Part shown: positions 1 to 57,849 of the stretch, one piece after another
Layout: every line of letters starts with the position of its first letter
Numbering within the stretch: the first letter of the stretch is position 1
NCBI GenBank assembly: GCA_963674865.2
Contig: CAXXYE010000008.1
Coordinates: 128,001-192,000 of the forward strand
Direction: 5' to 3'
DNA length: 64,000 nt
DNA from: Candidatus Hydrogenedentota bacterium
Lineage (GTDB): Bacteria; Hydrogenedentota; Hydrogenedentia; Hydrogenedentales; SLHB01
Program-made: the position numbers and the translations under genes
Notes under the pieces: model-generated
Databases searched by the model: none
Told to the model about the DNA's origin: nothing
What the model saw: only the letters and a program-made list of their open reading frames with translations

Positions 1-1254
1 GAGGCGCTGGTGCGGCGCTTTCAAGACATGGCGGTGGGTTGCGCCTACGCGATCCTCGGCGATTTCGGGCACGCGGAGGATGCGGCCCAAGAGGCGTTCA
101 TCCGGGCATTCATGTGTATCGAGCAACTCCGCGATGCAAATGCCTTCCCGGGATGGCTTCGGACTATCGTGGTGCGCCAGTGTGGACGCCATACGCGCCG
201 GAAGCGCATTCCGACGGTGTCTCTTGACGCCGGTGTGGATAGGGCCGCACTGCTTCCTTTCGACACGCCCGAGCATCGCGAAATGCGGGAGCTTGTTCGG
301 GCCGCTCTCGCGGGACTGTCCGCAAGAGAGCGCGAAGCGACAACGCTCTTCTACATCAATGGCTACTCGATGGCCGAAGTCGGCGCATTTCTTGACGTCC
401 CCGTTACCACCGTCAAGAGCAGGCTCCATTCGGCGCGTGGCAAGCTTCGGGAAAGGATGGTGAACATGGTTGAAAACACGCTCAAGGCCGACGCGTCCGG
501 CTCCGGCGAGATGCCCGACCGTATTGCGTTCCTCTTCGAGCTGGCCAAGCCCTTGGCTGGGGGCGTGCCTCTATTGAAGGCCCTGAAGCAGTCCGAGGGG
601 GCCGTGAAATCAACCGAGTTGAGAGAGGTTGTCCATGACTTGCAGATGGATATCCAGGCAGGCCAAACGTTTTCCGGCGCGCTTGCACGGTATCCCGACT
701 TGTTTCCCGCGAAGGCGATATCGCTGATTCGTGATGGCGAATACTGTGGCAGAGTCGCGGTTTTCACGCGGTTGGCGGGGGAATGGCTCGAAACCGGCCG
801 CTGTGAAGTCGATCCTTACGTATTCACACGCTGCGTTCACGCGTCGCACTGGTTCAGTGATGCCGTTGATGTCGGCGCGGAGGCTGTCCTGATCCGCGCC
901 GAAGAGGAGGGCCAAGTGGGCCAGGGCGAGCCGCGTGTATGGCTTGAGTTTCTCATGCCCCGCGGCGCGACGGAGAAGATCGCGCCCGCCTTCTCGCGCG
1001 AAGAGGCCAGGCGATTGTCCGTCGAACCCGAGCCTTTCCGCTCGCTGGCCCAAGCCGTCAGCGTTGTTCAGGAACTGAAGTTGAAGACGGTTCTCGACGC
1101 TGTGCAGGACGGCGACGACATGACGGGAATGCTAAGAATCCGGCTCAGGCCGGATGATTCGAATGAGGTCCTGCTGCCGATTGTGTTTTCCCCGAACTCC
1201 GACATGGATGAGGTCCGCATCGACCTCACATCGCTTCTGGGAGCGGGCGCGTGA
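1..1254 (+). CDS. ECF sigma-70 factor with long C-terminal extension (T2SSF/PilC-like domain plus further domain); 5' end lies outside the window
   Basis: Frame is open from base 1 (EALVRRFQD...). Region 2 DAAQEAFIRAF..AFPGWLRTIV; region 4 LSAREREATTLFYINGYSMAEVGAFLDVPVTTVKSRLHSAR; then GVPLLKAL..DIQAGQTFSGALARYPDLF..LIRDGEYCG, which resembles T2SSF. Confidence 0.85.
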   Translation, partial: EALVRRFQDMAVGCAYAILGDFGHAEDAAQEAFIRAFMCIEQLRDANAFPGWLRTIVVRQCGRHTRRKRIPTVSLDAGVDRAALLPFDTPEHREMRELVRAALAGLSAREREATTLFYINGYSMAEVGAFLDVPVTTVKSRLHSARGKLRERMVNMVENTLKADASGSGEMPDRIAFLFELAKPLAGGVPLLKALKQSEGAVKSTELREVVHDLQMDIQAGQTFSGALARYPDLFPAKAISLIRDGEYCGRVAVFTRLAGEWLETGRCEVDPYVFTRCVHASHWFSDAVDVGAEAVLIRAEEEGQVGQGEPRVWLEFLMPRGATEKIAPAFSREEARRLSVEPEPFRSLAQAVSVVQELKLKTVLDAVQDGDDMTGMLRIRLRPDDSNEVLLPIVFSPNSDMDEVRIDLTSLLGAGA

Positions 1255-37061: not shown

Positions 37062-38643
37062 TGTCAAGACTCTTTAGAAATGTCACATGTTGGGACTCAT
37101 TAGAAATGTCCTATGCTCGATGGTTGCAGAAGCGAGTTATCCAAGGTCTGTGGTCAGGTGCGTAGCAGCTGTCCCCAGACCGTCATATCCACATCCAGCG
37201 CGAAGCGCGCGGGCGCATAGCGCTCGTCGAGGATGTGGATATGTGGGTAACTCGCGTGCTCACCTTTCTTTTGCGTTCATGAGAGGTAGGCGTTGGACGT
37301 TGGGCCGCCAGCGCTTGTAGGGCGCGGGGGGAGCGTTCTTCTTCTTGGGCTTGGCGGGGGGCTGGACCTGTTGGACTCGTTGCTGCCCTTCTCGTTTGTA
37401 TTGCTTGACCGTGAGCCTGCGGTAGTCAAGGTCCTGGTCTTTGTAGAGCAGCCTGATGCCGCCGTGCAGATGGGTGCGGACCAGAATCCTGTCTTTGGGC
37501 CGGGGCAGAGGACTGTTGTTCTTGAGGATTTGGTAGTAATGATTCCCGAAACGGACGGTCCAGTCGTTTTGGACGACGCGCAGTTCCTCGAAGCAAAAAA
37601 TGTCATGCAGCTCAAGGCCTTTGGGTGGAGGACGGTGATAGTCCAGTTCCTCACGGGGCGCAATGGCGAACTTGGCGTTCAGAGCGTCACAAAAGCTTTC
37701 GTAGAGCAGCTTGTCGGCGGTGGCGATGGTGGTGATGCGCCGCAAGGCGAGTTCCTTGACGAACCGGTTCTGGTATGTGCCGTTGGAGCGCTCGACGCGG
37801 CCTTTGGCTTGAGGCGAAGTCGCGGGGATGATGACGATTCCCAGCTTATAGCAGGCCTCTCCGAATTGAGTCAGCGGCTCGCGCCCCGCCAGTTGCTCTT
37901 CGAGCGTGGGCTCCCGGCCGGTGATGTAGACGTTCTTTCGGTCCGTATACAGCGCCCGAGGAATACCGTATTTCTCGATCCACCGCCACAGAAGCTGCAT
38001 GGCGGCCTGCTTCGTTTCTTGCTCGGCCATGAGCGCCAAGGTTTCTCCTGTGGCGTCATCTATCATGTTCATCAGACAAGTTTGGCCTTGGTCCGGCCCG
38101 AACCAGTGGTGGTGACTCCCATCCATCTGCACCAGCTCTCCGAAATGGGCTCGCCGCTCCCTGCGGGAGCGATGCCGGCGCCCGGTGTCTCCCTTCGCCC
38201 AGAGCCCCTGCTCAAGCAGCCAGCGCCGTAACGTCTCGTGGTCGATGCACAGGCCTTCCTCCGCCAGCTTCTCCGCGGCCAGGGTCGGCCCCAAATCGTG
38301 TTCTCTATAGCGTTCCTGATAGCGCCGAAGGACTTTGTCCCGGAACGCGGCAGGCTTGGCTCGATTAGACGCCCGGCCCCGGTTGCGATGCACCAACCCC
38401 TCATCTCCCTCTGACACGAAGCGTGCGTGTATCCGCAGCGCCTGCCGGTAGCTCACTTCCATGCGCCGCGCCGCTTCCGCCAGGGTCATATGCTTTCCCA
38501 CAACAAGCTCCAACAACGACTTACGCATCAATTCCTTGCGACTCATCTTCAAATGCCCTTCCACGGCAGCCCTCCAAGTGAAAGGCTCCAATTGTGACAT
38601 TTCTAATGAGTCGAGGGGGTGACACTATCAAAGAGTCGCGACA
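37062..38643 (-). mobile_element. Insertion sequence, IS1202-type (formerly ISNCY), 1582 bp
   Basis: TGT...ACA ends; each end has two copies of a gactc(a/t)ttagaaatgtcac-like motif; 17-bp flanking direct repeat; one DDE transposase. Confidence 0.9.
37260..38564 (-). CDS. DDE transposase (IS1202/ISNCY type)
   Basis: HTH N-terminus, GELVQMDGSHH, IDDATG, ALYTDRK, SPQAKGRVER. GTG start after ggaggg. Confidence 0.93.
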   Translation of the reverse strand: MEGHLKMSRKELMRKSLLELVVGKHMTLAEAARRMEVSYRQALRIHARFVSEGDEGLVHRNRGRASNRAKPAAFRDKVLRRYQERYREHDLGPTLAAEKLAEEGLCIDHETLRRWLLEQGLWAKGDTGRRHRSRRERRAHFGELVQMDGSHHHWFGPDQGQTCLMNMIDDATGETLALMAEQETKQAAMQLLWRWIEKYGIPRALYTDRKNVYITGREPTLEEQLAGREPLTQFGEACYKLGIVIIPATSPQAKGRVERSNGTYQNRFVKELALRRITTIATADKLLYESFCDALNAKFAIAPREELDYHRPPPKGLELHDIFCFEELRVVQNDWTVRFGNHYYQILKNNSPLPRPKDRILVRTHLHGGIRLLYKDQDLDYRRLTVKQYKREGQQRVQQVQPPAKPKKKNAPPAPYKRWRPNVQRLPLMNAKER

Positions 38644-41670: not shown

Positions 41671-41716
41671 TGGAGCGCTTGGTGTTACCTCGGTGACTGC
41701 CCAAGGAGGGAACAAG

Positions 41717-44065
41717 ATGAACACGACATGCAATCGCGCCCAGAGCATCCTATGCCGGGCCGTTGGCGTTTTGGCGTGCGTCGTGCTGCTGACGGGCTGC
41801 GCGGCCATGCGCGCCGCCACGCAGAGGCCGGCTGGCCCCGCGGCGGGACAAGGTGGCCTCCCGCCGCTTGCGGCGCGCTGGGATCCGAGGGACGCTCAGG
41901 TGGGCGTGGCGGCTATGCCTTTCCCAAAAGACGCGCCCATCCTGGCCCGCGCCGGCCTGGAACTCCTCCAGGTTAACGACGTCTTGCTTCAGAAGCAGGT
42001 GCTTTCTCCCAACGGCCTCGCGCCTCCCGAACGCGCCATCCTCCGCTGGATCGACGACACCCTGCCTGATGTGCTCACCGGCGATGTGGCCTATCCACGC
42101 GATCTGCCCCAGGATGCCGGTTGGACATGGCGCTACCGGCTCGTCGAGGAGAGCGCGGAGGAGGTGCCGTGGCTCCCGGCGATGCGGAACGTGCCGCTGG
42201 ACAAGACCGAATACGAGATGTACCAGCTCGATCTCGAGCACGGCGGCGACACTCTCGGCGTCCGCATGGGCCTGCGCCTCAACGACCGCATCTACTGGTG
42301 GCAATTCATCCGCGCCGATTTTCTCCAACGCGGGCCGGTATTCGACCTCCTGCGCGTCGGCGGGCCCATCTACAATGAGGAGAGCACCATCCAGGCCGAT
42401 CTCTACCTGATCCTGTATGCCAACGGCCTCATCGAAGCCTACGCCCACTTCATCAACAACCAGCGCGAAGGAGTCGGCACCGAGGCCCACGGCATACCGG
42501 TAGTCGCCTTCGACCTACCGGACAAGCCGGCCGTTGACAACACCTTGGACGGAACGCGCGCCGTCTTCGACGTCGGCTCGCACCGGATCAGTCTCGGCCA
42601 ATGCGCCGCCTACGCCGATGCGCAGCGCCCCGGCGCTCTGCGTACGGAAGATGGCCTGGTGGTTTTGCAGGCCTGGATGGATCAGGAGATCTGGGGCGAG
42701 TTGCTCTGCGAGTACGAAGGTATTCCCGAAGAGAACATCGTGCCGGAGAAAGGCCGCAGCGGCACGGGCGATGGATTCTGGGTGGCCAAGCTCGGTGGAC
42801 GGACGATTCCGAGAGGAATGGCGCGCACCCTGCGCTTCACCATGAGCCCAGGCGATATGTCCCCCGAGGTCGTGCGCTATGACGCTCCTGGCTGGTGGCA
42901 TGCGCAGACAGGCGCATTGCCGACGCAAGGCTATCTGCCCACGGAATGGTGGGCTGTGCCGCGCGCCCTTGAGGTCGGCGGCGAAGGATACTTCACGCCC
43001 CACCCCCGGCACGGCCCCTTCGAACTCGGCTGCAGCGGCCGCGATCAAGACGGCACCCTCGGCGCAGCCATGCTGATGTTAGGCTACACCACGGGCGAAA
43101 CCCGATTCTGCACCCACGCCCTGCTCTCGGCCTATTGGTGGGCGGACATCGCCACCGACCACGTGGACTTCACCGTCCACGAGTTGCCGAAATACAGTTG
43201 GCAGTGGATTGTCCAGCCCTACATGCGCTGGACGGAACTCGTCTATGCCTACTGGGAAACCGGCGATCCCTACTTGCTCGAAACCGCCAAGTTCACCGCC
43301 GATGCCTACTATCGGTTCTTCTGGACAAACCGTCCCCACCGTTTCGTCGGCCGCGACGCTCTGCCTTGTTCCGGACTTCTGGCCCTCTGGCAAGCGACGG
43401 GCCAGTACATGTACCTCCAAAGGATGGGGGAGATCATCGCCGAGGGGCGCCGCTCCTATGGGCAGACGGATGACTACTGGCCCGGACATCAGTCCGGCTG
43501 CGGGCCGAACGGCGTGGCCCGGCAGCCCAGCTACGATTACATCCCCATGGTGCTGGCGCGCGTACAGACTCAGTACCTTGAGGCAATGAAGGGGCGTTGG
43601 CGTAGCGATGAAGAAGCCGGCTGGGACTTCATCCGCTCCATGCTCGAGCTTGTGGACAGCCACGAGAAGGGCGATTGGGCCAAGCGGGCCGTGGATCTAT
43701 CCTACTTCCCCTTCATCGCCATGGCCGAACACTTTCCCGACGAGGCCGACTACTGGCTCGATATGATGAACCGCTGGAACGCCGAGATGGAAATGCCCGA
43801 TACCCACGACGGTGGCAAGGCCTATTCGTGGGTGATGAGCGCCATCCGCTTCGACGCCTGGGCCTGGGGCGCGCGCTGGGAGGACGGCACGCTAGTCCTT
43901 TCTCCAAGCACGAAGCTCCTCGAAGATCCCCGTGCCCCTGAGACCGCCCGTATCTGGACCCCCGAAGGCTGGGTGACACTCGCCTATGCCAACGGCGAGG
44001 CCCGCGCCGTCAGTCCGAAAGGCTTCCCGGTGGAAGTTGCATCAAATCGCGAGGGCGCCCATTGA
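41717..44065 (+). CDS. Large hypothetical lipoprotein, probable alpha/alpha-toroid C-terminal domain
   Basis: Lipobox LLTGC; repeats LGYTTGETRF, AYWETGDPYLLETA, LWQATGQYMYL. Confidence 0.65.
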   Translation: MNTTCNRAQSILCRAVGVLACVVLLTGCAAMRAATQRPAGPAAGQGGLPPLAARWDPRDAQVGVAAMPFPKDAPILARAGLELLQVNDVLLQKQVLSPNGLAPPERAILRWIDDTLPDVLTGDVAYPRDLPQDAGWTWRYRLVEESAEEVPWLPAMRNVPLDKTEYEMYQLDLEHGGDTLGVRMGLRLNDRIYWWQFIRADFLQRGPVFDLLRVGGPIYNEESTIQADLYLILYANGLIEAYAHFINNQREGVGTEAHGIPVVAFDLPDKPAVDNTLDGTRAVFDVGSHRISLGQCAAYADAQRPGALRTEDGLVVLQAWMDQEIWGELLCEYEGIPEENIVPEKGRSGTGDGFWVAKLGGRTIPRGMARTLRFTMSPGDMSPEVVRYDAPGWWHAQTGALPTQGYLPTEWWAVPRALEVGGEGYFTPHPRHGPFELGCSGRDQDGTLGAAMLMLGYTTGETRFCTHALLSAYWWADIATDHVDFTVHELPKYSWQWIVQPYMRWTELVYAYWETGDPYLLETAKFTADAYYRFFWTNRPHRFVGRDALPCSGLLALWQATGQYMYLQRMGEIIAEGRRSYGQTDDYWPGHQSGCGPNGVARQPSYDYIPMVLARVQTQYLEAMKGRWRSDEEAGWDFIRSMLELVDSHEKGDWAKRAVDLSYFPFIAMAEHFPDEADYWLDMMNRWNAEMEMPDTHDGGKAYSWVMSAIRFDAWAWGARWEDGTLVLSPSTKLLEDPRAPETARIWTPEGWVTLAYANGEARAVSPKGFPVEVASNREGAH

Positions 44066-44108
44066 TGCCGGTGTGCATTACAGAAAGTTCTCCGAGGCGG
44101 GTGTAGCG

Positions 44109-44861
44109 ATGGCTCAGACGAAGCTGCCCGTAGGCAAGTCGGTGCGCGTGTCCATGCTTGTGGCGGGACTCGCGCTGTGCTTCCTTGCCTACATCTACAG
44201 AGCCCAGTTCCGCGCACTGGTGCTGCCGGGAGTCTTCACCGTCTCGGGGCGTGTGCATCAATACGGCGAAGTTGTTGAAGCGCGTTTGGCCTCGGATTTC
44301 GAGCGGGCCGAGTTGCCCTACCCGCCCGCGAAGATGATTCTCGTTGCTCTGAAGCGGGAGATGAAGATCGAGGTATGGGCGGCGGCGGCCGAAGGGCGTT
44401 TCAAGCTCGTGCGCACCTATCCCATTCTGGCGGCGAGCGGAACGCTCGGGCCAAAGCTGCGGGAAGGCGATAGGCAGGTTCCGGAGGGCGTGTATCGCGT
44501 CGAGTCGCTGAATCCGAACAGCGCTTTCCATCTTGCATTGCGCCTGAATTATCCGAACGCATTTGATCGAGCAAAGGCCCAACTCGATGGGCGGAGCGAT
44601 CTCGGCTCGGACATCATGATCCACGGGCCGTCATCCTCCATCGGCTGCTTGGCGGTGACCGAGGAAGCGGCCGAGGATCTATTCGTCCTGGCGGCCGAAA
44701 CGAGGCCTCGCAATATCGCCGTGATTATCAGTCCGCTGGATCTCAGGAGTTTGGATGTGCCGAACGACGTGCCCAATCTGCCGGATTGGACTTCTGATCT
44801 CTACAACACCATCCGGGCTGCTCTGAAAGAGTTGGATAGAGGTTTTGAATCAACGGAGTGA
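44109..44861 (+). CDS. L,D-transpeptidase (YkuD) family protein, YafK/DpaA-like
   Basis: GPKLREGDRQVPEGVY, NPNSAFHLALRLNYPN, IMIHG..SIGC. Confidence 0.9.
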   Translation: MAQTKLPVGKSVRVSMLVAGLALCFLAYIYRAQFRALVLPGVFTVSGRVHQYGEVVEARLASDFERAELPYPPAKMILVALKREMKIEVWAAAAEGRFKLVRTYPILAASGTLGPKLREGDRQVPEGVYRVESLNPNSAFHLALRLNYPNAFDRAKAQLDGRSDLGSDIMIHGPSSSIGCLAVTEEAAEDLFVLAAETRPRNIAVIISPLDLRSLDVPNDVPNLPDWTSDLYNTIRAALKELDRGFESTE

Positions 44862-45008
44862 GCCGTGCCATACACAGCGGCTTGTGGAGCAGAGGTCGCC
44901 CTGCCGTCGGGCGCGTCGCTGCACGACGCGTCCGCGCCTGCGCGATAGTGTACACTGGAGACGTACGCGTGCTATTATGCACAACGTGGCACAAACGGGG
45001 ATCACGGC

Positions 45009-46172
45009 ATGCCAACTCTTCAAGTATGCTTCAGGCGCCATTGGCGCGGCTTCATCTTCCTCGGGGCGGCAATCGCCGTTGCCCCGGTGCTCTCCTGCCG
45101 CAGCGATCCGCCGCCGCCCCCCCTCGATAAGACCTTCGACGGCAATACGCGCGATCTTCGGCAAACTCAGGTTGCTCCCACGCTCGATACGCCTATGGAA
45201 GAGGGGAAGAACGTCGTGTGGTGTGCCACCTTCGCCGCGGGATGGAAGAAGTTCCAAGAGGATGTCTTGGATGAACCGGTAGCGCTGGAGGGCGCCGACG
45301 CTGCCTGCGCCCGGCTGAACGCGGCGCCGAATCCCGAAGCGGATCTTCCTGAGGGCGATCACTACACGGCTGCGGGCTGGGAAGACCAAGGCATTGTCGG
45401 CAAGGTTCATCAAGACATGGCCAAGCTCTTCCCCCAGAAGCGGGCGCCGACCTTCCCCGGCATCATTCCAGGCTCTTTTCTTATGTATGCGTACCTGGAC
45501 ACTGGCGTCCCGTTCACTATTCCCTACTTCGAGAGCCGTGAGCCCCTTGTGTTTGTTGACAGCGCCGGCAGAGCCACGCAGATTAGGGCCTTCGGACTGC
45601 GCCAATCCGATACGGATCGCTACTATTCGCTCAGAAAACAAGCCCATGTCCTTTTTGCCACAGTCGAGGAGACTGAAGATACGCGCGCGGCCAAGGAATT
45701 TGCCATCGATCTCTGCCGCGACTCGACGCCGAATCAGCTTGTGTTCGCACGTGTCGAACCTAAGGGGACGCTGGCCTCGACGCTGAAGACTATCGAAGAG
45801 AAGAGCCGCGCCTTTCAGGAGGGGCGGCCCGAGAAAGGATTAGGAGGCGAGGACTCGCTTCTCGTACCGGACATGTTCTGGCGGCTCGATCATCACTTCG
45901 CCGAGTTTGAGGATAGACCGTTCAAGAACACGCGATTAGGCCATCAGGCCATGAGCGTGGCCCGCCAGGATATCCAGTTCCGAATGGATCGCAGCGGCGC
46001 GGAACTGTCGTCAGAAGCTGAGGCGTACAACTATTCGACCCTGGGAGTTACCTATACCGGCGAAGGCCCCTTCCTGATCTACATCAAGAAGCGCGGAGCG
46101 AAGCAGCCCTTCTTCGCCCTCTGGATCGATAACGCCGAACTGCTCCAGCCATGGCCGAGTGGTAAAGAGTAG
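45009..46172 (+). CDS. Serpin-like lipoprotein, copy 1
   Basis: Lipobox VLSC; C-terminal QDIQFRMDRSGAELSSEA..GPFLIYIKK..PFFALWI resembles the serpin hinge and signature. Confidence 0.6.
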   Translation: MPTLQVCFRRHWRGFIFLGAAIAVAPVLSCRSDPPPPPLDKTFDGNTRDLRQTQVAPTLDTPMEEGKNVVWCATFAAGWKKFQEDVLDEPVALEGADAACARLNAAPNPEADLPEGDHYTAAGWEDQGIVGKVHQDMAKLFPQKRAPTFPGIIPGSFLMYAYLDTGVPFTIPYFESREPLVFVDSAGRATQIRAFGLRQSDTDRYYSLRKQAHVLFATVEETEDTRAAKEFAIDLCRDSTPNQLVFARVEPKGTLASTLKTIEEKSRAFQEGRPEKGLGGEDSLLVPDMFWRLDHHFAEFEDRPFKNTRLGHQAMSVARQDIQFRMDRSGAELSSEAEAYNYSTLGVTYTGEGPFLIYIKKRGAKQPFFALWIDNAELLQPWPSGKE

Positions 46173-46310
46173 ACTACATTCCAGACCTCTGCGACTCCCC
46201 CGGAGTAGGGATTTCGACCCGCTTGTCGGCTGCTCCGGCTGCCCCGATAGCATGCACTGCAAAAGTATACGTGCTATTATGCGTGACGTAGCGCAAAGGA
46301 GGATGACGGT

Positions 46311-47474
46311 ATGCCGAATCTTCACGTATGCTCCAGGCGCCACTGGCGTGTCTTCGTCTTCTGTGGGGCGGGAATCGCCGTTGCGCTCATGCTTTCCTGC
46401 CGTAGCGATCCACCCGCGCCGCCGCTCGATAAGACCTTAGACGGCAATACAAGTGATCTCCGGCAAACTCAGATTGTTCCCACCCTCGACACGCCCATGG
46501 AGGAGGGGAAGAACGTCGTGTGGTGTGCCACCTTCGCGGCGGGATGGAAGAAGTTCCAAGAGGATGTCTTGAATGAACCGGTAGCGCTGGAGGGCGCCGA
46601 CGCTGCCTGCGCCCGGCTGAACGCGGCGCCGAATCCCGAAGCGGATCTTCCTGAGGGCGATTACTACACGGCTGCGGGCTGGGAAGACCAAGGCATCATC
46701 GGCAAGGTTCATCAAGACATGGCCAACCTGTTTCCCCAGAAGCCGGAGCCGACCTTCGCCGGTATCATTCCAGGCTCCTTTCTGATGTACGCGTACCTTG
46801 ACACTGGCGTCCCGTTCACTATTCCCTACTTCGAGAGCCGTGAGCCCCTTGTGTTTGTTGACAGCGCCGGCAAAGTCACGCAGATCAGATCCTTCGGATT
46901 GCGCGAAGCCGATAGGGACCGGTATGGCCCGCTCAGGCAGCAGGCACGCGTTCTCTTTGCCGTCATTGAGGAGACTGAAGATACACGTGTGGCCAACGAA
47001 TTCGCCATCGATCTCTGCCGCGACTCGGCGCCGAATCAACTCGTGTTTGCGCGCGTGGAATCCAAGGGCAACTTGGCCTCGACGCTGAAGACTATCGAAG
47101 AGAAGATCCGAGCATTTCAGGAAGAGTGGCCCGACATGGGCCTGGGAGGAGAGGACCTGCTTCTCGTGCCGGACATGTTCTGGCGGCTCGAGCATCATTT
47201 CGCCGAGTTCGAGGGGAAATCCTTCAAGAACACGCACCTGAGCCAACAAGACATGACCGTGGCCCGCCAGGATATCCAATTCCGAATGGATCGCAGCGGC
47301 GCGGAACTGTCGTCAGAAGCTGAGGCCCACTGGCCGTCTGCCCAAGGCGGGACCTATACCGGCGAGGGGCCCTTCCTGATCTACATCAAGAAGCGCGGAG
47401 CGAAGCAGCCCTTCTTCGTTCTCTGGATCGACAACGCCGAACTGCTCCAGCCATGGCCGAGTGAAAATCGGTAG
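46311..47474 (+). CDS. Serpin-like lipoprotein, copy 2 (tandem paralog, 1302-bp period)
   Basis: Same length (387 aa), colinear, long near-identical DNA blocks shared with copy 1. Confidence 0.6.
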   Translation: MPNLHVCSRRHWRVFVFCGAGIAVALMLSCRSDPPAPPLDKTLDGNTSDLRQTQIVPTLDTPMEEGKNVVWCATFAAGWKKFQEDVLNEPVALEGADAACARLNAAPNPEADLPEGDYYTAAGWEDQGIIGKVHQDMANLFPQKPEPTFAGIIPGSFLMYAYLDTGVPFTIPYFESREPLVFVDSAGKVTQIRSFGLREADRDRYGPLRQQARVLFAVIEETEDTRVANEFAIDLCRDSAPNQLVFARVESKGNLASTLKTIEEKIRAFQEEWPDMGLGGEDLLLVPDMFWRLEHHFAEFEGKSFKNTHLSQQDMTVARQDIQFRMDRSGAELSSEAEAHWPSAQGGTYTGEGPFLIYIKKRGAKQPFFVLWIDNAELLQPWPSENR

Positions 47475-52794: not shown

Positions 52795-53279
52795 AGGCGC
52801 CCCAGGGCCATCACGCGCTCAATATCATCGCGCAGCGCGGCCACGAGCCGGGCCTCGGCGGGCCGGTAGGACGGAGGCGCGGGCGTGGGATTGGCGCAGG
52901 CTTCCGCGAGGAGGGCCATATCCATCACCATCCTGCCCCAACCGCGCCGCTGTACCGCTTCCGCGATGTCGAGCTGGTGGTCGCTCATGTGTTCATTGTA
53001 CTTCTTCAGCCTGGGCACAACGACAAACGGCCGCCGCGCTTCGAGCGCGTCGAGAACGGAGCCGATCCCGGCGTGGCACACGATCACGCGCGCCTCGCGT
53101 TGGATCCGCAGGATCTCGTCCCTTGACTTGAAGTCAAAGAACTCGCAGGTTTCCGGACGCGTTTGCCCCAAACCGATCTGGATAACCGTCTTCTCGCCCG
53201 TCGATAAGGCGATCTCATCCATCTTCCGAATCAGTCTCGGGAAATCCAGGAACATCGTGCCCAGGGTGACGTAAATCAT
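52791..53279 (-). CDS. PssE/CpsG (Alg13-like) glycosyltransferase subunit
   Basis: MIYVTLGT..FPRL, IQIG, VCHAGIGS, VVPRLKKYNEHMSDHQ. Confidence 0.9.
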   Translation of the reverse strand: MIYVTLGTMFLDFPRLIRKMDEIALSTGEKTVIQIGLGQTRPETCEFFDFKSRDEILRIQREARVIVCHAGIGSVLDALEARRPFVVVPRLKKYNEHMSDHQLDIAEAVQRRGWGRMVMDMALLAEACANPTPAPPSYRPAEARLVAALRDDIERVMALGRL

Positions 53280-55243
53280 GCCGTGCGCTCCCCTCGACGC
53301 CTGCCGGCTCGCCTACTCCAGCCCGGCACGATGAACGTCGCCACAAGGCCCAGGCCCAACAGCCGGTGCTTGAATCCCGTCCACGTGGTGAGTCCCGGAA
53401 GTTGCCGCATGAGAAATCGCGGCCGGCAATAGAACTTGCGCAGCGCCTTGCGGTACTGCCGGGCCACGACGCGGGACGTCAATTCGCCGGAGTCGAAGGC
53501 CATGGAGCCATACGACGCCAGATCATCCCACGCGTCAATCCGAAGGCGGCCGCTCGTGACCACTTCGTCATACAGCGCCGTGCCGGGATAGGGCGTTGCC
53601 ACCGTGTACTGAGCATAGTCCGGATCGAGTTCACGGCAGAAGCGCATCGTCGCTTCCGTGTCGGCCAGCGTTTCGCCCAGGTTCCCGAGCATGAAGTACA
53701 CGCCCACCTCGAGTCCCGCCTCGTGCGCGGCGCGGACGGCGGCCCGCACCTGCTCGATGGTGATGTTCTTGTTGAGAGAGTCAATGACTCGCTGCACGCC
53801 CGATTCCGCGCCGAAGTAGACGCGGTAGCAGCCCGCCGCCTTCATGGCCTGGAGCAGTTCGGGCGTCACGTGGTTCACACGAAGGCCGTTTGTCGTCGAC
53901 CACGGTATCCTGGCCAGCCCGCGTTCCGTCAGCATCGCGCAGATCGCCTGGACCCGCTCCGCATCCGCCGTGAACACATCGTCAATGACCGCGATCTCCC
54001 GAGCGCCGTAACGCTCGACGAGGAACTGCCACTCATCCACGACGTCCGCCGCCGGCCGGAGGCGGAGGCGTCGCCCGAAGACTCCCTTGTAGCAGAAGGT
54101 GCATCCATACGGGCAGCCCCGCGAGGTGATGATGGGGAGGCAGAAATCGTTCCGGCGCGCCAGGCTCGAATAGCGCCCGAGGGGGAACAGCGACCAATCG
54201 GGACAGGGCAGGGCGTCCAGCTCGGCGCACAAGGGGCGCTCCGGATTGTGGACGATGCGCCCGTTCTTGCGCCACGAGACGCCGGCCACGCCCTCAGCGT
54301 CTTGGCCCTGGGCGAGGCGTTCCACCAACTCGCCCAGGGTGACCTCGCCTTCCGAACGGACCACGTAGTCGAAGGCTCCTTCCGCAAGCAGCTCCTCCGG
54401 CAGAACCGTCGCATGAGGCCCGCCCGCTATCAGCATCGGCGGCTGGCCGAGGGCGCGGATGCCCTTGACGATGCCCAGCGTCCCCGGCAGGAGCGGCGTT
54501 GTCACCGTGAAGCACACGAGGTCCGGCGCCTGGCCGGCGATCAGTGCCGTAACATCCTGCGCGGACAGCCGCTCGGCGTTCGCGTCGATCACGCGCACCT
54601 CGCAGCCGTGCCCTTCGAGGGCCGACGCGATGTAAGCCAATCCCATCGGCGGCTGATCGCTCGAAAATCCCCCGGCGTACGCCGATTGCACCAAAGTTGC
54701 CTTCAGGCGCCGCTCACGGCTCCGATCTCCGCCAATCGGCTCATCCTCATCGATCAGGCTCCCACGCATCCGCGCGCGCGGGCCGTAGACGCGCAGCAAC
54801 TCGCGCCACTGCACATAGAATCGATCCGCGAGCCAGTACATCAAACGGCCCGTCCAGGAAGGACGCGTTACTTGCGCGCCGCACTCGATGTACACACTCG
54901 GCACGCGAAAAAGCTTGGCTACCAGCACCACCGGAATCGCGATCTCGGCGCCCGTCGATACAACGAGATCCGGCCGCTCCTTCCTGAAGATCCGCGCCAG
55001 CCGAAACAGGTTAGCCACGAAGGCGAGGGGATTGCGCGGCCGGTTAGGCACGAGGTGCGCACGGGGGAGCGCGCGCGTCGTATCCGCGTCATAGCAGAAG
55101 TAGAAAGCGTCGTGCCCCTCGAAGGCTTCGGCGAGACTGAGCATTTCCGTCAGGTGCCCGCCGTGGGAGCACGCGAGGCATATGGACAGCCGTTTCACCG
55201 TCTCCGCGTTCGTCTCCGTGCGCATCCTCGTGTTCCGACTCAT
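53276..55243 (-). CDS. Fusion: PssD/CpsF (Alg14-like) domain plus B12-binding radical SAM enzyme
   Basis: CLACSHGGHLTEM, ERPDLVVSTGAEIA, YIE..PSWTGRL..FYVQW; then PPMGLAYIA, GGPHAT, EGE, TSRGCPYGCTFC, FGAESG, TPYPGT. Confidence 0.88.
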   Translation of the reverse strand: MSRNTRMRTETNAETVKRLSICLACSHGGHLTEMLSLAEAFEGHDAFYFCYDADTTRALPRAHLVPNRPRNPLAFVANLFRLARIFRKERPDLVVSTGAEIAIPVVLVAKLFRVPSVYIECGAQVTRPSWTGRLMYWLADRFYVQWRELLRVYGPRARMRGSLIDEDEPIGGDRSRERRLKATLVQSAYAGGFSSDQPPMGLAYIASALEGHGCEVRVIDANAERLSAQDVTALIAGQAPDLVCFTVTTPLLPGTLGIVKGIRALGQPPMLIAGGPHATVLPEELLAEGAFDYVVRSEGEVTLGELVERLAQGQDAEGVAGVSWRKNGRIVHNPERPLCAELDALPCPDWSLFPLGRYSSLARRNDFCLPIITSRGCPYGCTFCYKGVFGRRLRLRPAADVVDEWQFLVERYGAREIAVIDDVFTADAERVQAICAMLTERGLARIPWSTTNGLRVNHVTPELLQAMKAAGCYRVYFGAESGVQRVIDSLNKNITIEQVRAAVRAAHEAGLEVGVYFMLGNLGETLADTEATMRFCRELDPDYAQYTVATPYPGTALYDEVVTSGRLRIDAWDDLASYGSMAFDSGELTSRVVARQYRKALRKFYCRPRFLMRQLPGLTTWTGFKHRLLGLGLVATFIVPGWSRRAGRRRGERTA

Positions 55244-55408
55244 AATCGACGTTGCTCATCTGGGGATGAAGGGGCATGAAGAGAAGGCGAAAAACCGGGA
55301 CTGACACAAGCGGCGTCCGCCGTAAGCGGACGAGACGTGTCTGTCCCTGCTTTTCGCAAGAACATGACGCCATCACCATGACTCATGCCACTTGCACCTT
55401 TCCCACAC

Positions 55409-56905
55409 TCAGCCGAATAGGCTGACCTTTCCTGCCTTGAGGCTGTTCTTCACCATCACGCCCACAATGCGCGCCGCGTAGGCGAAATCCTCAGCCGTCG
55501 CCATCTTCCTGCGAATCTCGCCGATACCTTTAGGCGTGAAACAACGCGCCACCCGCTTCCGGATGAAACGCCAGTAGATCTCCTGCCGCTTCGCGTTCAG
55601 CTCATCCGCGGTGAAGTGCTTCGTGTGATACGCCGTGTGAAAGATCGTACTGGCCTCGGCATGCGGTACATCGAGCAGGCCCAGGGACTTGTAGACCTTG
55701 TAGAGATCCGATCCGGCATAAGGCTGCGCGATGTACAAGCTGATCATGTCCAGGCCCGAATCGACGGCAAACTGGGCCGTCTTCTCGACGCTTTCAGGCG
55801 TCTCCTCGGGAAATCCAATGATGAAATTGCCGTAAGTCCATATGCCGAGGCGGTGGCAGAGCTCGACAGTCTCGAGGACGCGGTCGAGGTCCACCTTCTT
55901 GCGGATGAACCGGAGTATCTCCGGATCCCCGGACTCGATGGGGAAGCAGGCGCGATAGAAGCCCGAGGCGCGCATCGCCTCCAGCAATTCCTCGTTGACG
56001 CGCCATATCGAGAGGCCCGGCGGCACCGTCCAGGTAACGTCGATATCCTGCTGGATGAGGTCCTCGCAGAGCGCCATTACCCGCTTCGGCTGAGCCAGGA
56101 AGCTGTCATCCTGAAAGGCGATCTCCCGCACACCGAACGTCTCCACCATGTACTCGATCTCGTCCACCACACGCTCCGGCGCCCGGGGACGCCACGTGCG
56201 CCAGAACCGCTTGGTGCTGCAAAACACGCAGTCGTAGGGGCACCCGCGGCTCGAAATCAGAAAACCGATGGGCCAGCGCTTCGCGAACGGCATGAGAGGC
56301 CGCTGATCTTCGAGGTAGACGTCCATTGGCAGCAGATCGCGCGCCGGCAACGGGAGGCCGTCCAGGTCCTCGATAAGATCCGCCAACGGATTCACGGCGG
56401 CTTTCGAGGTCGTTCCCGGAAGATCCTCCGGCAACGCTTTGTCGGCCTCCAAACGCGCAAGGAGAGCCGTTAGCACGGACTCTCCTTCGCTGCGGACGAT
56501 GAGGTCAATGTTCGGATCCTCGATCAGCGCTTCGGAGCGTTCACTGGCGTCCGGCCCGCCGACAACCACCGGCACGTCTCCCAGCGTCGCCTTCACGAGC
56601 GCCGCGATCCTCAGCGTGTCGCGATCGAATCCAGTGAACTGGCACGTAATGCCCACGAGATCCGGTGCTTCATCGTGCAGCCGCGCCGCAATCTCCTCAT
56701 CAGGCATGCCCACCCGGACCAAGTCCCCATCTTCGCGGCGCACCCACCAGCCTTCCGCCATGCAGTCGAGGACGACAGGCTCGTGCCCCGCCTCGCGCGC
56801 CGCCGCAGCCAGATAGGCGAGTCCGAGGGGCTCGTACAAGTCGGGCCGCGTCTGCTTCTTCGGCAGCCGCCCCGTGAAGGTCGGGCGAATCAACAGCACC
56901 TTCAT
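55409..56905 (-). CDS. B12-binding radical SAM protein
   Basis: EPLGLAYLAA, VGGP, EGE, SSRGCPYDCVFC, FQDDSF, IESG, FIIGFPEET, PYAGS. Confidence 0.92.
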   Translation of the reverse strand: MKVLLIRPTFTGRLPKKQTRPDLYEPLGLAYLAAAAREAGHEPVVLDCMAEGWWVRREDGDLVRVGMPDEEIAARLHDEAPDLVGITCQFTGFDRDTLRIAALVKATLGDVPVVVGGPDASERSEALIEDPNIDLIVRSEGESVLTALLARLEADKALPEDLPGTTSKAAVNPLADLIEDLDGLPLPARDLLPMDVYLEDQRPLMPFAKRWPIGFLISSRGCPYDCVFCSTKRFWRTWRPRAPERVVDEIEYMVETFGVREIAFQDDSFLAQPKRVMALCEDLIQQDIDVTWTVPPGLSIWRVNEELLEAMRASGFYRACFPIESGDPEILRFIRKKVDLDRVLETVELCHRLGIWTYGNFIIGFPEETPESVEKTAQFAVDSGLDMISLYIAQPYAGSDLYKVYKSLGLLDVPHAEASTIFHTAYHTKHFTADELNAKRQEIYWRFIRKRVARCFTPKGIGEIRRKMATAEDFAYAARIVGVMVKNSLKAGKVSLFG

Positions 56906-57849
56906 CGGCGGGCCGCCTCCGGGATAGGGGCGGTGAGTCCCTTCAGAATTCCCCACGAATATGGCCAGATGACGACCCACCGCGCCGCCCACCGGGGCAG
57001 CGCAGCGCCAAGGCCGCCAAACTTGAACGTCAGGAAAGCCAAGGTAGCCGCGAGCGGAGCCGCCATGGTGGCCAGCCCGAGCCAAGGCCATTTCATGAGC
57101 AGGAGCGCCCCCGCCAGCAAGGCCAGCGGGAACAGCGGAATGGCCAGCGTGTACCACCATAACGCTTCGTACCACCCCGCCGCGCGCAGCATCACGACAA
57201 TATCCTTCCCCATCATCACGCTCTTGCGCCAGAGCCCGCGCAGGCGCGTCTCGTAGCGATGTTGCGCCGCGATCCCCTCGTCGAACCAGATCCGGTGTCC
57301 GGCCTTCCGCAGGGCGACGGAGATGTACACGTCCTCGGCGGCGCTATGGCCGCTGAGCGGGAGCCAGCCGCCCGCCTCGCGCAGCGCGGCCGTTCGGAAA
57401 TAGCTATTCCCGCCGATGACCCCCGATGTCTCGCCCGTTTCGAGCGTTTCCACGACAAACCACATGTGGTGGAGCCATGCCGCCAGATTTCGCTTCCCCA
57501 CTGGAGGATGCCGGCCGGTGCCCGCCGCCACGTCGGGCCGGGCGTCCAGCACCGACTTCGCACGCGCAACCCACTCCGGCACGAGGGTGCAGTCTGCGTC
57601 GGTGAAGGCCAGGTAATCCGTCTCGCAGGCCTTCAATACGGCATTGCGGGCCTCATATAACCCCGTCGTCTTGCTAGCGATCACCCGCGCCCCATACCGC
57701 TCCGCTACGGCCACCGTCGGATCCGAGGGGTCGTCGACGGCCACAACGATCTCGTCAGGCGGGGCGGTTTGCCGCTGGATGCTTTCGAGACAGTCCCCGA
57801 TGATGTCCTGCGCGCTTCGCGCACAGATCGCCAACGTCAGCGTACTCAT
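56902..57849 (-). CDS. GT2 glycosyltransferase with C-terminal TMs
   Basis: IGDCLESI, ARN, AFTDADC, AEDV, hydrophobic C-terminus. Confidence 0.85.
   Translation of the reverse strand: MSTLTLAICARSAQDIIGDCLESIQRQTAPPDEIVVAVDDPSDPTVAVAERYGARVIASKTTGLYEARNAVLKACETDYLAFTDADCTLVPEWVARAKSVLDARPDVAAGTGRHPPVGKRNLAAWLHHMWFVVETLETGETSGVIGGNSYFRTAALREAGGWLPLSGHSAAEDVYISVALRKAGHRIWFDEGIAAQHRYETRLRGLWRKSVMMGKDIVVMLRAAGWYEALWWYTLAIPLFPLALLAGALLLMKWPWLGLATMAAPLAATLAFLTFKFGGLGAALPRWAARWVVIWPYSWGILKGLTAPIPEAARR

Follow-up and report, generated by a model that had tools for sequence, protein, structure and literature searches.

Tandem genes for putatively membrane-tethered proteins with a predicted serpin fold and divergent loop tips in a Candidatus Hydrogenedentota genome

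Serpins are a textbook case of proteins that trap by changing conformation. According to PMC8233489, prokaryotic members are rare and surprisingly animal-like, and they have fed a long debate on horizontal transfer; in the same paper, the superfamily is delimited by the Pfam family PF00079. Inhibitory members carry the hinge motif E-x-G-T-E-A-A-A-A at positions P17-P9 (Hopkins 1993 and Irving 2000, as quoted in part of PMC8233489). In animals, the SERPINA and SERPINB clusters are described in part of PMC12646145 as tandem arrays with divergent reactive-centre loops. Here, we report on two neighbouring genes in a stretch of 64,000 nucleotides (nt) from a Candidatus Hydrogenedentota bacterium (GenBank assembly GCA_963674865.2, contig CAXXYE010000008.1, positions 128,001 to 192,000; this whole stretch is called the window). 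Each gene encodes a protein of 387 amino acids (aa) for which profile comparisons and structure models support a serpin fold. The models show an exposed loop at the position of the reactive-centre loop, and the tip of this loop is the most diverged part of the two copies. A preliminary description of the locus, made from the sequence alone, had proposed tandem serpin-like lipoproteins that are being diversified against different proteases.

The closest described proteins are the canonical prokaryotic serpins of PF00079, for example thermopin (PDB 1SNG), miropin (5NCS) and a serpin encoded elsewhere in the source genome. The two proteins and their relatives (the family) are predicted to share the fold with them, miropin chain 5ncs_A aligning to the model with Z 16.8. 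Also shared are the exposed loop between strand 5 of sheet A (s5A) and strand 1 of sheet C (s1C), the glycine of the hinge and the spacing of the motif P..F..D.PF[LI]; many of the bacterial serpins are exported. The hinge differs, reading G-T-E-A-A-A-A-T in canonical serpins and G-A-E-L-x-S-E-A in the family, and the models suggest about 40 fewer residues between s6B and s3A. Anchoring in the family is mostly by an uncleaved transmembrane (TM) segment or a polytopic domain, unlike in canonical prokaryotic serpins. The canonical serpins of the phylum carry the inhibitory hinge motif literally, including the one in the source genome.

Among solved structures, PAI-1 (PDB 3Q02, 1DVN) gave the best profile match (E 7e-5), in register from s5A to s4B and with a loop length within 2 residues. 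PAI-1 is a secreted vertebrate inhibitor with a hinge of small residues, from which the hinge of the family differs. The non-inhibitory serpins ovalbumin (1OVA) and PEDF (1IMV, 9J3P) have the same fold as the model (Z 16.7-16.9) and a hinge that is likewise off the consensus. To our knowledge, the hinges of non-inhibitory serpins are generally degenerate. In contrast to these, the deviant hinge of the family is strongly conserved and amphipathic across a very large number of sequences.

As for the tandem arrangement, the animal arrays and an array in a relative genome (G044) consist of copies that differ most in the bait loop and show recombination between copies, like the pair in the window. 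The array in the relative genome (G044:C17:1493097-1499728; L083, L091, L094-L096) comprises five tandem canonical serpins with differing loops and with lipobox-like or signal N-termini. While these arrays are made up of proven or motif-competent canonical inhibitors, the members of the present pair are putative inhibitors. Tandem copies with differing bait loops are as such an ordinary pattern for serpins.

Evidence for a serpin fold

Searches against Pfam, NCBIfam and PADLOC gave no match for either copy; in Pfam, where PF00079 has a gathering cut-off of 27 bits, no family appeared at E<=1 for either copy. The best of the examined relatives, P0082, reached 19.2 bits with Pfam Serpin (E 8e-4), which is below the cut-off. 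A single-sequence phmmer search of the PDB returned one match (E 1.7) to an unrelated chain, which was rejected as a chance match. Using a family profile of 54 members, all 16 PDB matches at E<=10 were serpins (15 PAI-1 and thermopin 1SNG). Using a profile of 149 members, all 46 matches at E<=1 were serpins or serpin C-terminal peptides. The profile alignments are in register over strand 5A, the hinge glycine, the loop and the P..F..D.PF[LI] signature. In these alignments, FRLDRsGAeL of the family stands opposite the canonical VNEEGTEA, and P..F.FDRPFL opposite P..F.ADHPFL; the family consensus P-[RT]-x-[FY]-x-F-D-R-P-F-L has the spacing of the canonical P-x-x-F-x-A-D-H-P-F-L. A second, weak local profile match spans s3A-s4C-s3C. 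Comparison with 15 canonical serpins of the same phylum by hhalign resulted in E values of 1.1e-3 and 5e-4 (probability 21-31%, 76-80 columns), and an extended alignment (mact 0.01) covered 355 columns, with confidence only at the C-terminal 80 and the s4C/s3C stretch. The resemblance of the two flanks of the variable patch to serpin strand 5A/hinge and signature, on which the preliminary description was built, was thus recovered independently by profile and hhalign alignments, and the divergence that it assumed for the family is borne out by the empty Pfam result at E<=1.

Two AlphaFold2 models were calculated without templates from two different alignments, and they agree with each other. 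The predicted local distance difference test score (pLDDT) was 88.1 and the predicted template modelling (pTM) score 0.85 with 54 sequences, and 88.9 and 0.86 with 149 sequences. In both models pLDDT fell below 50 only at the N-terminus and at residues 332/333-343; the loop block 331-340 had values of 33-37 in the two runs. A Foldseek search of the PDB with the first model gave 335 matches at E<=1e-3 (best 4.8e-11), with serpins in the top rows and template modelling scores of 0.39-0.51. With VIA-align, the same model reached Z 17.6 over 282-288 residues (model residues 56-381) at a root-mean-square deviation of about 4 Å, with 8-12% identity to solved serpins. In this comparison 391 of 999 chains had Z>=8 and just 3 more had Z>=2, and the best 50 of the 999 chains were serpins in native or intact states. 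Structure prediction therefore returned the fold that the preliminary description had expected. The strands of the model are s5A at 314-327, s1C at 347/348-350 and s4B at 355-361, with coil at 328-346, which places an exposed loop between strand 5A and strand 1C, where serpins carry the reactive-centre loop. Taken together, the models and profiles support a serpin fold, and the family is very probably a true serpin homologue, which we read as a large bacterial sister group of the canonical serpins.

In canonical serpins such as alpha-1-antitrypsin, s6B is separated from s3A by about 130 residues. In the models, the stretch from s6B (68-72) to s3A (157-164) comprises only about 89, with one long helix at 129-140 and short ones besides. 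Judging from the DSSP strings, at least one of helices D, E and F would therefore be missing or vestigial, and the scaffold appears to be slimmer than that of a canonical serpin.

The tandem copies, their hinge and their loop

The two genes are a tandem duplicate. Both open reading frames (ORFs) of 387 aa and their spacing of 1302 bp were found as previously described, the direct repeat carrying both ORFs, and the proteins are identical at 324 of 384 residues without gaps (84%, BLASTP). The duplicated unit consists of about 66 nt before the ATG and the coding sequence; no similarity between the copies was seen beyond the stop codons. DNA contigs from three datasets of one study, probably of the source sample, span both copies, and one of them runs through 46132-46532, across the gap between the copies. 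This makes an assembly artefact an unlikely source of the tandem pair, as far as a single study that is not independent of the source can tell. The sequencing datasets listed as containing the stretch are three of DNA and none of RNA.

Each copy had been proposed to possess its own -10-like upstream segment. An exact 13-mer is indeed present at both (Table 1), and in copy 1 it includes the -10-like hexamer with TG upstream, preceded at 18 nt by a -35-like hexamer (9 of 12 matches in total). A promoter scan found 1 such site compared to a mean of 1.0 in shuffled sequences, which is not significant by itself. For this reason the promoter reading of copy 1 is a consensus match only.

In both copies the hinge P17-P9 reads R-S-G-A-E-L-S-S-E, in which 6-7 of the 9 residues deviate from the inhibitory motif. 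Residue counts were made over 252 family sequences, non-redundant at 80%. P15 (residue 330) is G in all 252 sequences. Alanine occupies P14 (331) in 203, L, V or I occupies P12 (333) in 247, S is found at P10 (335) in 224, and A or S at P8 (337) in 214; P6 and P4 (339, 341) are mostly hydrophobic. The positions between them are charged and more variable, with E at P13 (332) in 127 and at P9 (336) in 178 sequences and mostly K, E or R at P11 and P7 (334, 338). P17 is R in 198. From P14 to P4, every second residue is thus small or hydrophobic, alternating with variable charged positions. This alternation would be expected of a strand with one buried face, and it fits insertion into sheet A and equally a strand-forming binding segment. 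Between the hinge glycine and the PF motif, the window copies have a distance of 24 residues and most family members one of 23. When the family consensus is aligned to PAI-1, a gap of 2 residues opens; PAI-1 has a loop longer by 1-2 residues, and the canonical serpins of the phylum have one longer by 4-5. Hence, the bulky hinge pointed out in the preliminary description is non-canonical across the family, and the loop it called short is slightly so.

The variable patch, residues 340-347, differs at 6 of 8 positions between 23 (317-339) and 22 (348-369) identical residues, and it corresponds to P5-P3' when G330 is counted as P15, both in agreement with the earlier reading. Over the whole length, 63 substitutions separate the two proteins (387 residues) and 157 the two genes (1164 nt); 63 codons carry non-synonymous changes and 65 synonymous ones only. 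The 6/8 window is the maximum of the protein; under uniform placement its permutation P is 0.069, a marginal clustering. At the nucleotide level, where permutations were stratified by codon position (n = 5000), codons 339-347 hold 15 differences in 27 nt. This is the most diverged 27-nt window of the gene and was matched in 0 of 5000 permutations, and codons 317-338 next to it contain 1 difference in 66 nt. Other patches differ less sharply, as had been noted: 309-316 at 5 of 8 positions, and 199-206, 206-213, 269-276 and 302-309 at 4 of 8 each.

We read the copies as a gene-conversion mosaic in which the loop tip is an unconverted or re-diverged island, and the most diverged one. Their longest identical run extends over 89 nt (P = 2e-4); with the next two it adds up to 211 nt, a sum that 0 of 5000 permutations reached. 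Synonymous divergence (dS) along the gene ranges from 0.07 at codons 317-338 to 0.85 at codons 188-316, and the 27-nt island is flanked by identical runs of 47 nt and, a few codons on, 49 nt. Over the whole gene, the ratio of non-synonymous divergence (dN) to dS is 0.087/0.403 (about 0.22), from which it follows that purifying selection maintains both copies; the ratio (omega) is 0.16 in region 188-316. The dN of the patch, whose own dS is not computable, is 0.75 and thus close to the dS of the unconverted region 188-316. Omega in the patch is therefore near 1 or above, and it need not exceed 1. The patch is under relaxed or positive selection, the two being indistinguishable from pair data, and dN/dS > 1 in the patch could not be demonstrated by the pair comparison.

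Across the family, window 338-345 is the fourth most variable non-overlapping 8-residue window (3.49 bits), surpassed by 29-36 in the linker and by 219-226 and 269-276; the patch itself, window 340-347, comes 18th among 336 windows. We also pooled four independent pairs of paralogues from the same locus (the window pair, L003, L032 and P0026/P0030; L031 was dropped as the same duplication as L032). In these pairs, residues 339-348 differ at a fraction of 0.70 and residues 218-227 at 0.72, compared to a mean of 0.24. The loop thus belongs to a group of about five hypervariable loops, and only one other diverges as fast after duplication; it is not uniquely variable. Of the idea that the patch stands out from other surface loops, its fast divergence after duplication holds and its singularity does not. 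Covariation by mutual information with average product correction (252 sequences, effective number 211, phylogenetic signal left in) gave couplings of 332 with 174, 334 with 164, and 343 with 203/204, and loop residues 332, 338 and 343 were coupled with 198-205. As a weak lead, these couplings would make the 198-205 loop, itself variable, and the top of s3A neighbours of the reactive-centre-like loop.

Membrane anchor, family distribution and gene neighbourhood

Table 1. Positions in the window of the two genes, their upstream segments and their loop regions
Feature	Position	Strand	Description
Copy 1, 387-aa ORF	45009..46172	+	anchor about 13-29 (VLSC), Pro-rich linker, predicted serpin-fold domain about 56-381
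Copy 2, 387-aa ORF	46311..47474	+	architecture as copy 1; loose lipobox MLSC
Upstream duplicated segment, copy 1	44943..45008	+	13-mer and promoter-like site
Upstream duplicated segment, copy 2	46245..46310	+	13-mer and AGGAGG-like ribosome-binding site
13-mer	44968-44980 and 46270-46282		cgtgctattatgc, exact in both copies
Promoter-like site, copy 1	44949-44978		TGTACA, 18 nt, TATTAT
Copy 1 loop equivalent to the reactive-centre loop	45996..46049	+	residues 330-347; hinge G330-A337 (P15-P8), variable 338-347
Variable patch, copy 1	46026..46049	+	YNYSTLGV, residues 340-347
Variable patch, copy 2	47328..47351	+	HWPSAQGG, residues 340-347

Both copies start with a basic stretch, followed by a 17-residue hydrophobic segment, V/M-L-S-C and a Pro-rich linker. 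With the lipobox written as [LVI][ASTVI][GAS]C, the VLSC and MLSC of the copies fit just a loosened pattern (a regular expression of our own). Among 159 relatives with a short N-terminus, 20 have a strict and 35 a loose lipobox. A simple hydropathy scan found at least one TM-like segment ahead of the domain in 165 of 205 relatives; among the 40 without one, a weaker signal peptide or a truncated start is common. N-terminal extensions of more than 100 aa occur in 35 of the 205, most of them with 3-7 TM-like segments. Three clusters of relatives (P0058, P0206 and P0207; 547-557 aa, 39-41% mutual identity) combine regions r2 and r4 of an extracytoplasmic function (ECF) sigma70 factor, a TM segment and the domain, and no anti-sigma domain could be recognised between the sigma and serpin-fold parts of these three. 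Other relatives carry GYF_2, WD40 or C-terminal ankyrin repeats. No longer fused forms (679-2000 aa) were found by a word-indexed search, a weak negative given that the exhaustive search contains a relative of 1477 aa. From the TM segments and the order of sigma factor, TM segment and domain, it follows that the domain would be an extracytoplasmic, membrane-tethered module. For the two copies, the N-terminal hydrophobic anchor is predicted to hold the protein on the outside of the cytoplasmic membrane, and they are possibly lipidated. A membrane-anchored family had been proposed before and is well supported by the TM-like segments; the lipoprotein assignment is weak, with a loose lipobox in both copies and a strict one in few of the relatives.

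The word-indexed search found 60 relatives, nearly all annotated as 'hypothetical', from metagenome-assembled genomes (MAGs) of Hydrogenedentota or the FCB group and without Pfam domains. In an exhaustive search the family comprised 2160 clusters (50% identity) at E<=1e-3 and 493 at E<=1e-30. The clusters listed from the ESM Atlas were all 'hypothetical protein', apart from one in which 15% of the members have PF00079. Among species-representative genomes, 270 stretches were found in Planctomycetota, Verrucomicrobiota, Hydrogenedentota, Sumerlaeota, Armatimonadota and others, and the distribution across these phyla is patchy. In a sample of 61 genomes of the phylum, the family is present in 4 genomes, one of them with an adjacent pair, and canonical serpins are present in 12. 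More than one family ORF was found at 10 of 76 loci, some of these being frame-split pieces. A contig of an Armatimonadia MAG (L029:2575-11036) carries a head-to-tail array of at least six full-length copies and fragments; adjacent copies have diverged at 50-73% of positions, and in one of the copies the loop is extended by 7 inserted residues.

The source genome (5.79 Mb, 97.5% complete) has just these two copies of the family. Its only PF00079 match in a profile search is the canonical serpin on contig 7 (G000:C7:294492-295586; L079:1396-2745), with E 7.5e-124 and the hinge EEGTEAAAAT; the frame of this gene runs about 50 residues beyond the usual serpin C-terminus. In another genome, a membrane-anchored ORF of 454 aa (G022:C1:5604826-5605161; L092:1492-2853, minus strand) matches PF00079 in the C-terminal third alone (E 3.6e-13). 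With its odd hinge (…ENGIGGGP…), this protein may stand between the canonical and the divergent serpins. In the literature, searched with subscription journals and InterPro/SUPERFAMILY annotation outside the scope, we found no description of the family and, among the papers listed, no report that links serpin-like proteins to anti-sigma or ECF sigma factors.

To assess the gene neighbourhood, the six-frame ORFs of the 76 loci were clustered. Apart from the family and its antisense shadow ORFs, which formed the first two clusters, the best neighbour family was present at 8 of 76 loci, and no conserved neighbour, protease or other, was found among them, so that no operon partner is inferred. The best neighbour families reflect lineage synteny (phosphatase-like, short-chain dehydrogenase/reductase, sulfatase and ABC genes). 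In the window, the pair is preceded by an ORF of 790 aa (41693-44065, plus strand) that is exported, has a signal/lipobox-like N-terminus (…LLTGCAAM…) and gave no match in Pfam, NCBIfam or PADLOC. It is followed by a YkuD-type L,D-transpeptidase/amidase ORF (43986-44861, plus strand; Pfam YkuD 4.3e-7; NCBIfam LdtF/DpaA/YafK 4.1e-24, far under the model cut-off). In its longest form, this ORF reaches 80 nt into the 3' end of the 790-aa gene, and translation therefore probably starts at a later position. Downstream of the pair are the convergent genes coaBC, rpoZ, gmk and yicC; no protease or sigma factor gene adjoins the pair. Antisense ORFs of 265 aa (44850-45647, minus strand) and 280 aa (46437-47279, minus strand) overlie both serpin-like genes. 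Such antisense shadows recur at 52 of 76 related loci. They are to be expected opposite GC-rich genes and probably do not represent genes themselves. About 6.4 kb upstream, a transposase-like ORF (37260-38600, minus strand) has helix-turn-helix domains and an rve integrase core, the latter below the Pfam cut-off. Further away, two adjacent B12-binding radical-SAM proteins are encoded at 53276-57175 (minus strand), the first with an Alg14/glycosyltransferase-like N-terminal part, and they adjoin two family-2 glycosyltransferases.

Possible roles and meaning

The most likely reading of the pair, to which we give slightly less than even weight, is that of divergent serpin-type proteins which serve outside the membrane as a bait or trap for proteases and whose loop tips are particular to each copy. 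The loop would act as the bait for a protease, and the variable residues P5-P3' (340-347) would select which one. After cleavage, the conserved proximal hinge would insert into sheet A as a new strand, and this insertion would trap, or at least consume, the protease. The two copies might thereby protect the envelope from different proteases. All of these functions are inferred: that a protease binds and cleaves the loop, that the loop inserts and inhibits, and that the targets of the copies differ. Several results weigh against a protease trap. Only P15 G and P13 E of the window copies match the inhibitory motif, P10 S being merely small, and the scaffold is probably slimmer than in canonical serpins. 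With a textbook serpin in the same genome, a classical inhibitor is already available to the cell, and the 76 loci offer no conserved protease neighbour. The clustering in the protein is marginal, the loop comes only fourth in family-wide variability, and among recent paralogues it ties with 218-227; since other loops are as variable, relaxed constraint is enough to explain the patch. With omega above 1 undemonstrated as well, these comparisons do not show the diversification against different proteases that had been proposed for the loop.

An alternative is that the proteins are non-inhibitory in the manner of ovalbumin, PEDF or Hsp47 and serve as a membrane-tethered binding, scaffold or chaperone module. 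The hinge would then be kept for partner binding or strand packing, and the distal loop would be an unconstrained surface loop. The deviation of the hinge, the slimmed scaffold and the lack of a conserved protease neighbour can all be read in this way, as can loops 219-226, 269-276 and 199-206, which are as variable as the patch, and the joining of the domain to polytopic TM regions, GYF_2, WD40 and ankyrin repeats. However, the predicted-disordered loop has an invariant glycine and about 80-98% conservation at every second position in the 252 sequences, a pattern that suits a segment able to turn into a buried strand when the protein changes state. In addition, the length of the loop is within 1-2 residues of that of working inhibitors, and recent paralogues repeatedly diverge there, so that we regard a non-inhibitory role as rather unlikely. 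That the proteins are unrelated to serpins, the fold match being an AlphaFold artefact or convergence, is very improbable. The low identity, the modest Foldseek and hhalign scores and the missing Pfam match would allow it, but template-free models from two alignments agree, the three-sheet fold, a complex one, is matched over about 285 residues and non-serpins are cleanly separated in score, and every PDB sequence match of the profiles is a serpin, in register at two separate motifs.

The domain could also be a protease-triggered sensor, in which cleavage of the bait and the conformational change are read across the membrane and the protease is not killed. Sigma-fused relatives might release the sigma factor, and anchor-only forms such as this pair might act on another membrane partner. 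The three clusters with ECF sigma factor, TM segment and domain, without an anti-sigma domain in between, suggest such a role, as do the long N-terminal extensions with several TM-like segments and the position of the domain, predicted to be always on the extracytoplasmic side of the anchor. On the other hand, sigma fusions are rare (3 clusters among the sequences examined, in a family of 2160 clusters), the window proteins have a short anchor alone without a cytoplasmic module, no sigma or anti-sigma gene adjoins the pair, and no support for signalling was seen. A sensor therefore seems improbable to us. A further explanation concerns only the claim of diversification and is compatible with every functional reading: the sharp patch could be a by-product of recombination. 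Conversion would have evened out most of the two copies, and the 27-nt island, together with region 188-316, would be old divergence missed by conversion tracts, or else a short tract from a third copy. The long identical runs, the uneven dS along the gene and a patch dN close to the dS of the unconverted region are what this would produce, and we consider it a serious possibility, if not quite an even one. The genome with its two copies shows no third donor, though, the 27-nt island sits exactly on the loop tip, and the same segment is a hot spot of divergence in four independent paralogue pairs.

Because the published census is defined by PF00079, the family lies outside of it. What is new is a branch of the serpin superfamily, very probably, with a hinge of its own, an apparently slimmer scaffold and a predicted membrane tether, amounting to at least 2160 clusters. 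If it is a true homologue, it would provide a deep bacterial outgroup for rooting serpin evolution and, as a natural experiment, could reveal what the spring mechanism requires of hinge and scaffold. If its members are inhibitors or sensors, they would represent an unstudied control of envelope proteases in Planctomycetota, Verrucomicrobiota, Hydrogenedentota and their neighbours. A bolder view, which we think unlikely, is that the family is an ancient, bacteria-only sister lineage of serpins that works as a protease-triggered switch of the envelope by cleavage and strand insertion, some members being wired to ECF sigma factors and tandem copies offering several baits. If this were true, the serpin mechanism would be of prokaryotic, envelope-sensing origin and not a late import from animals.

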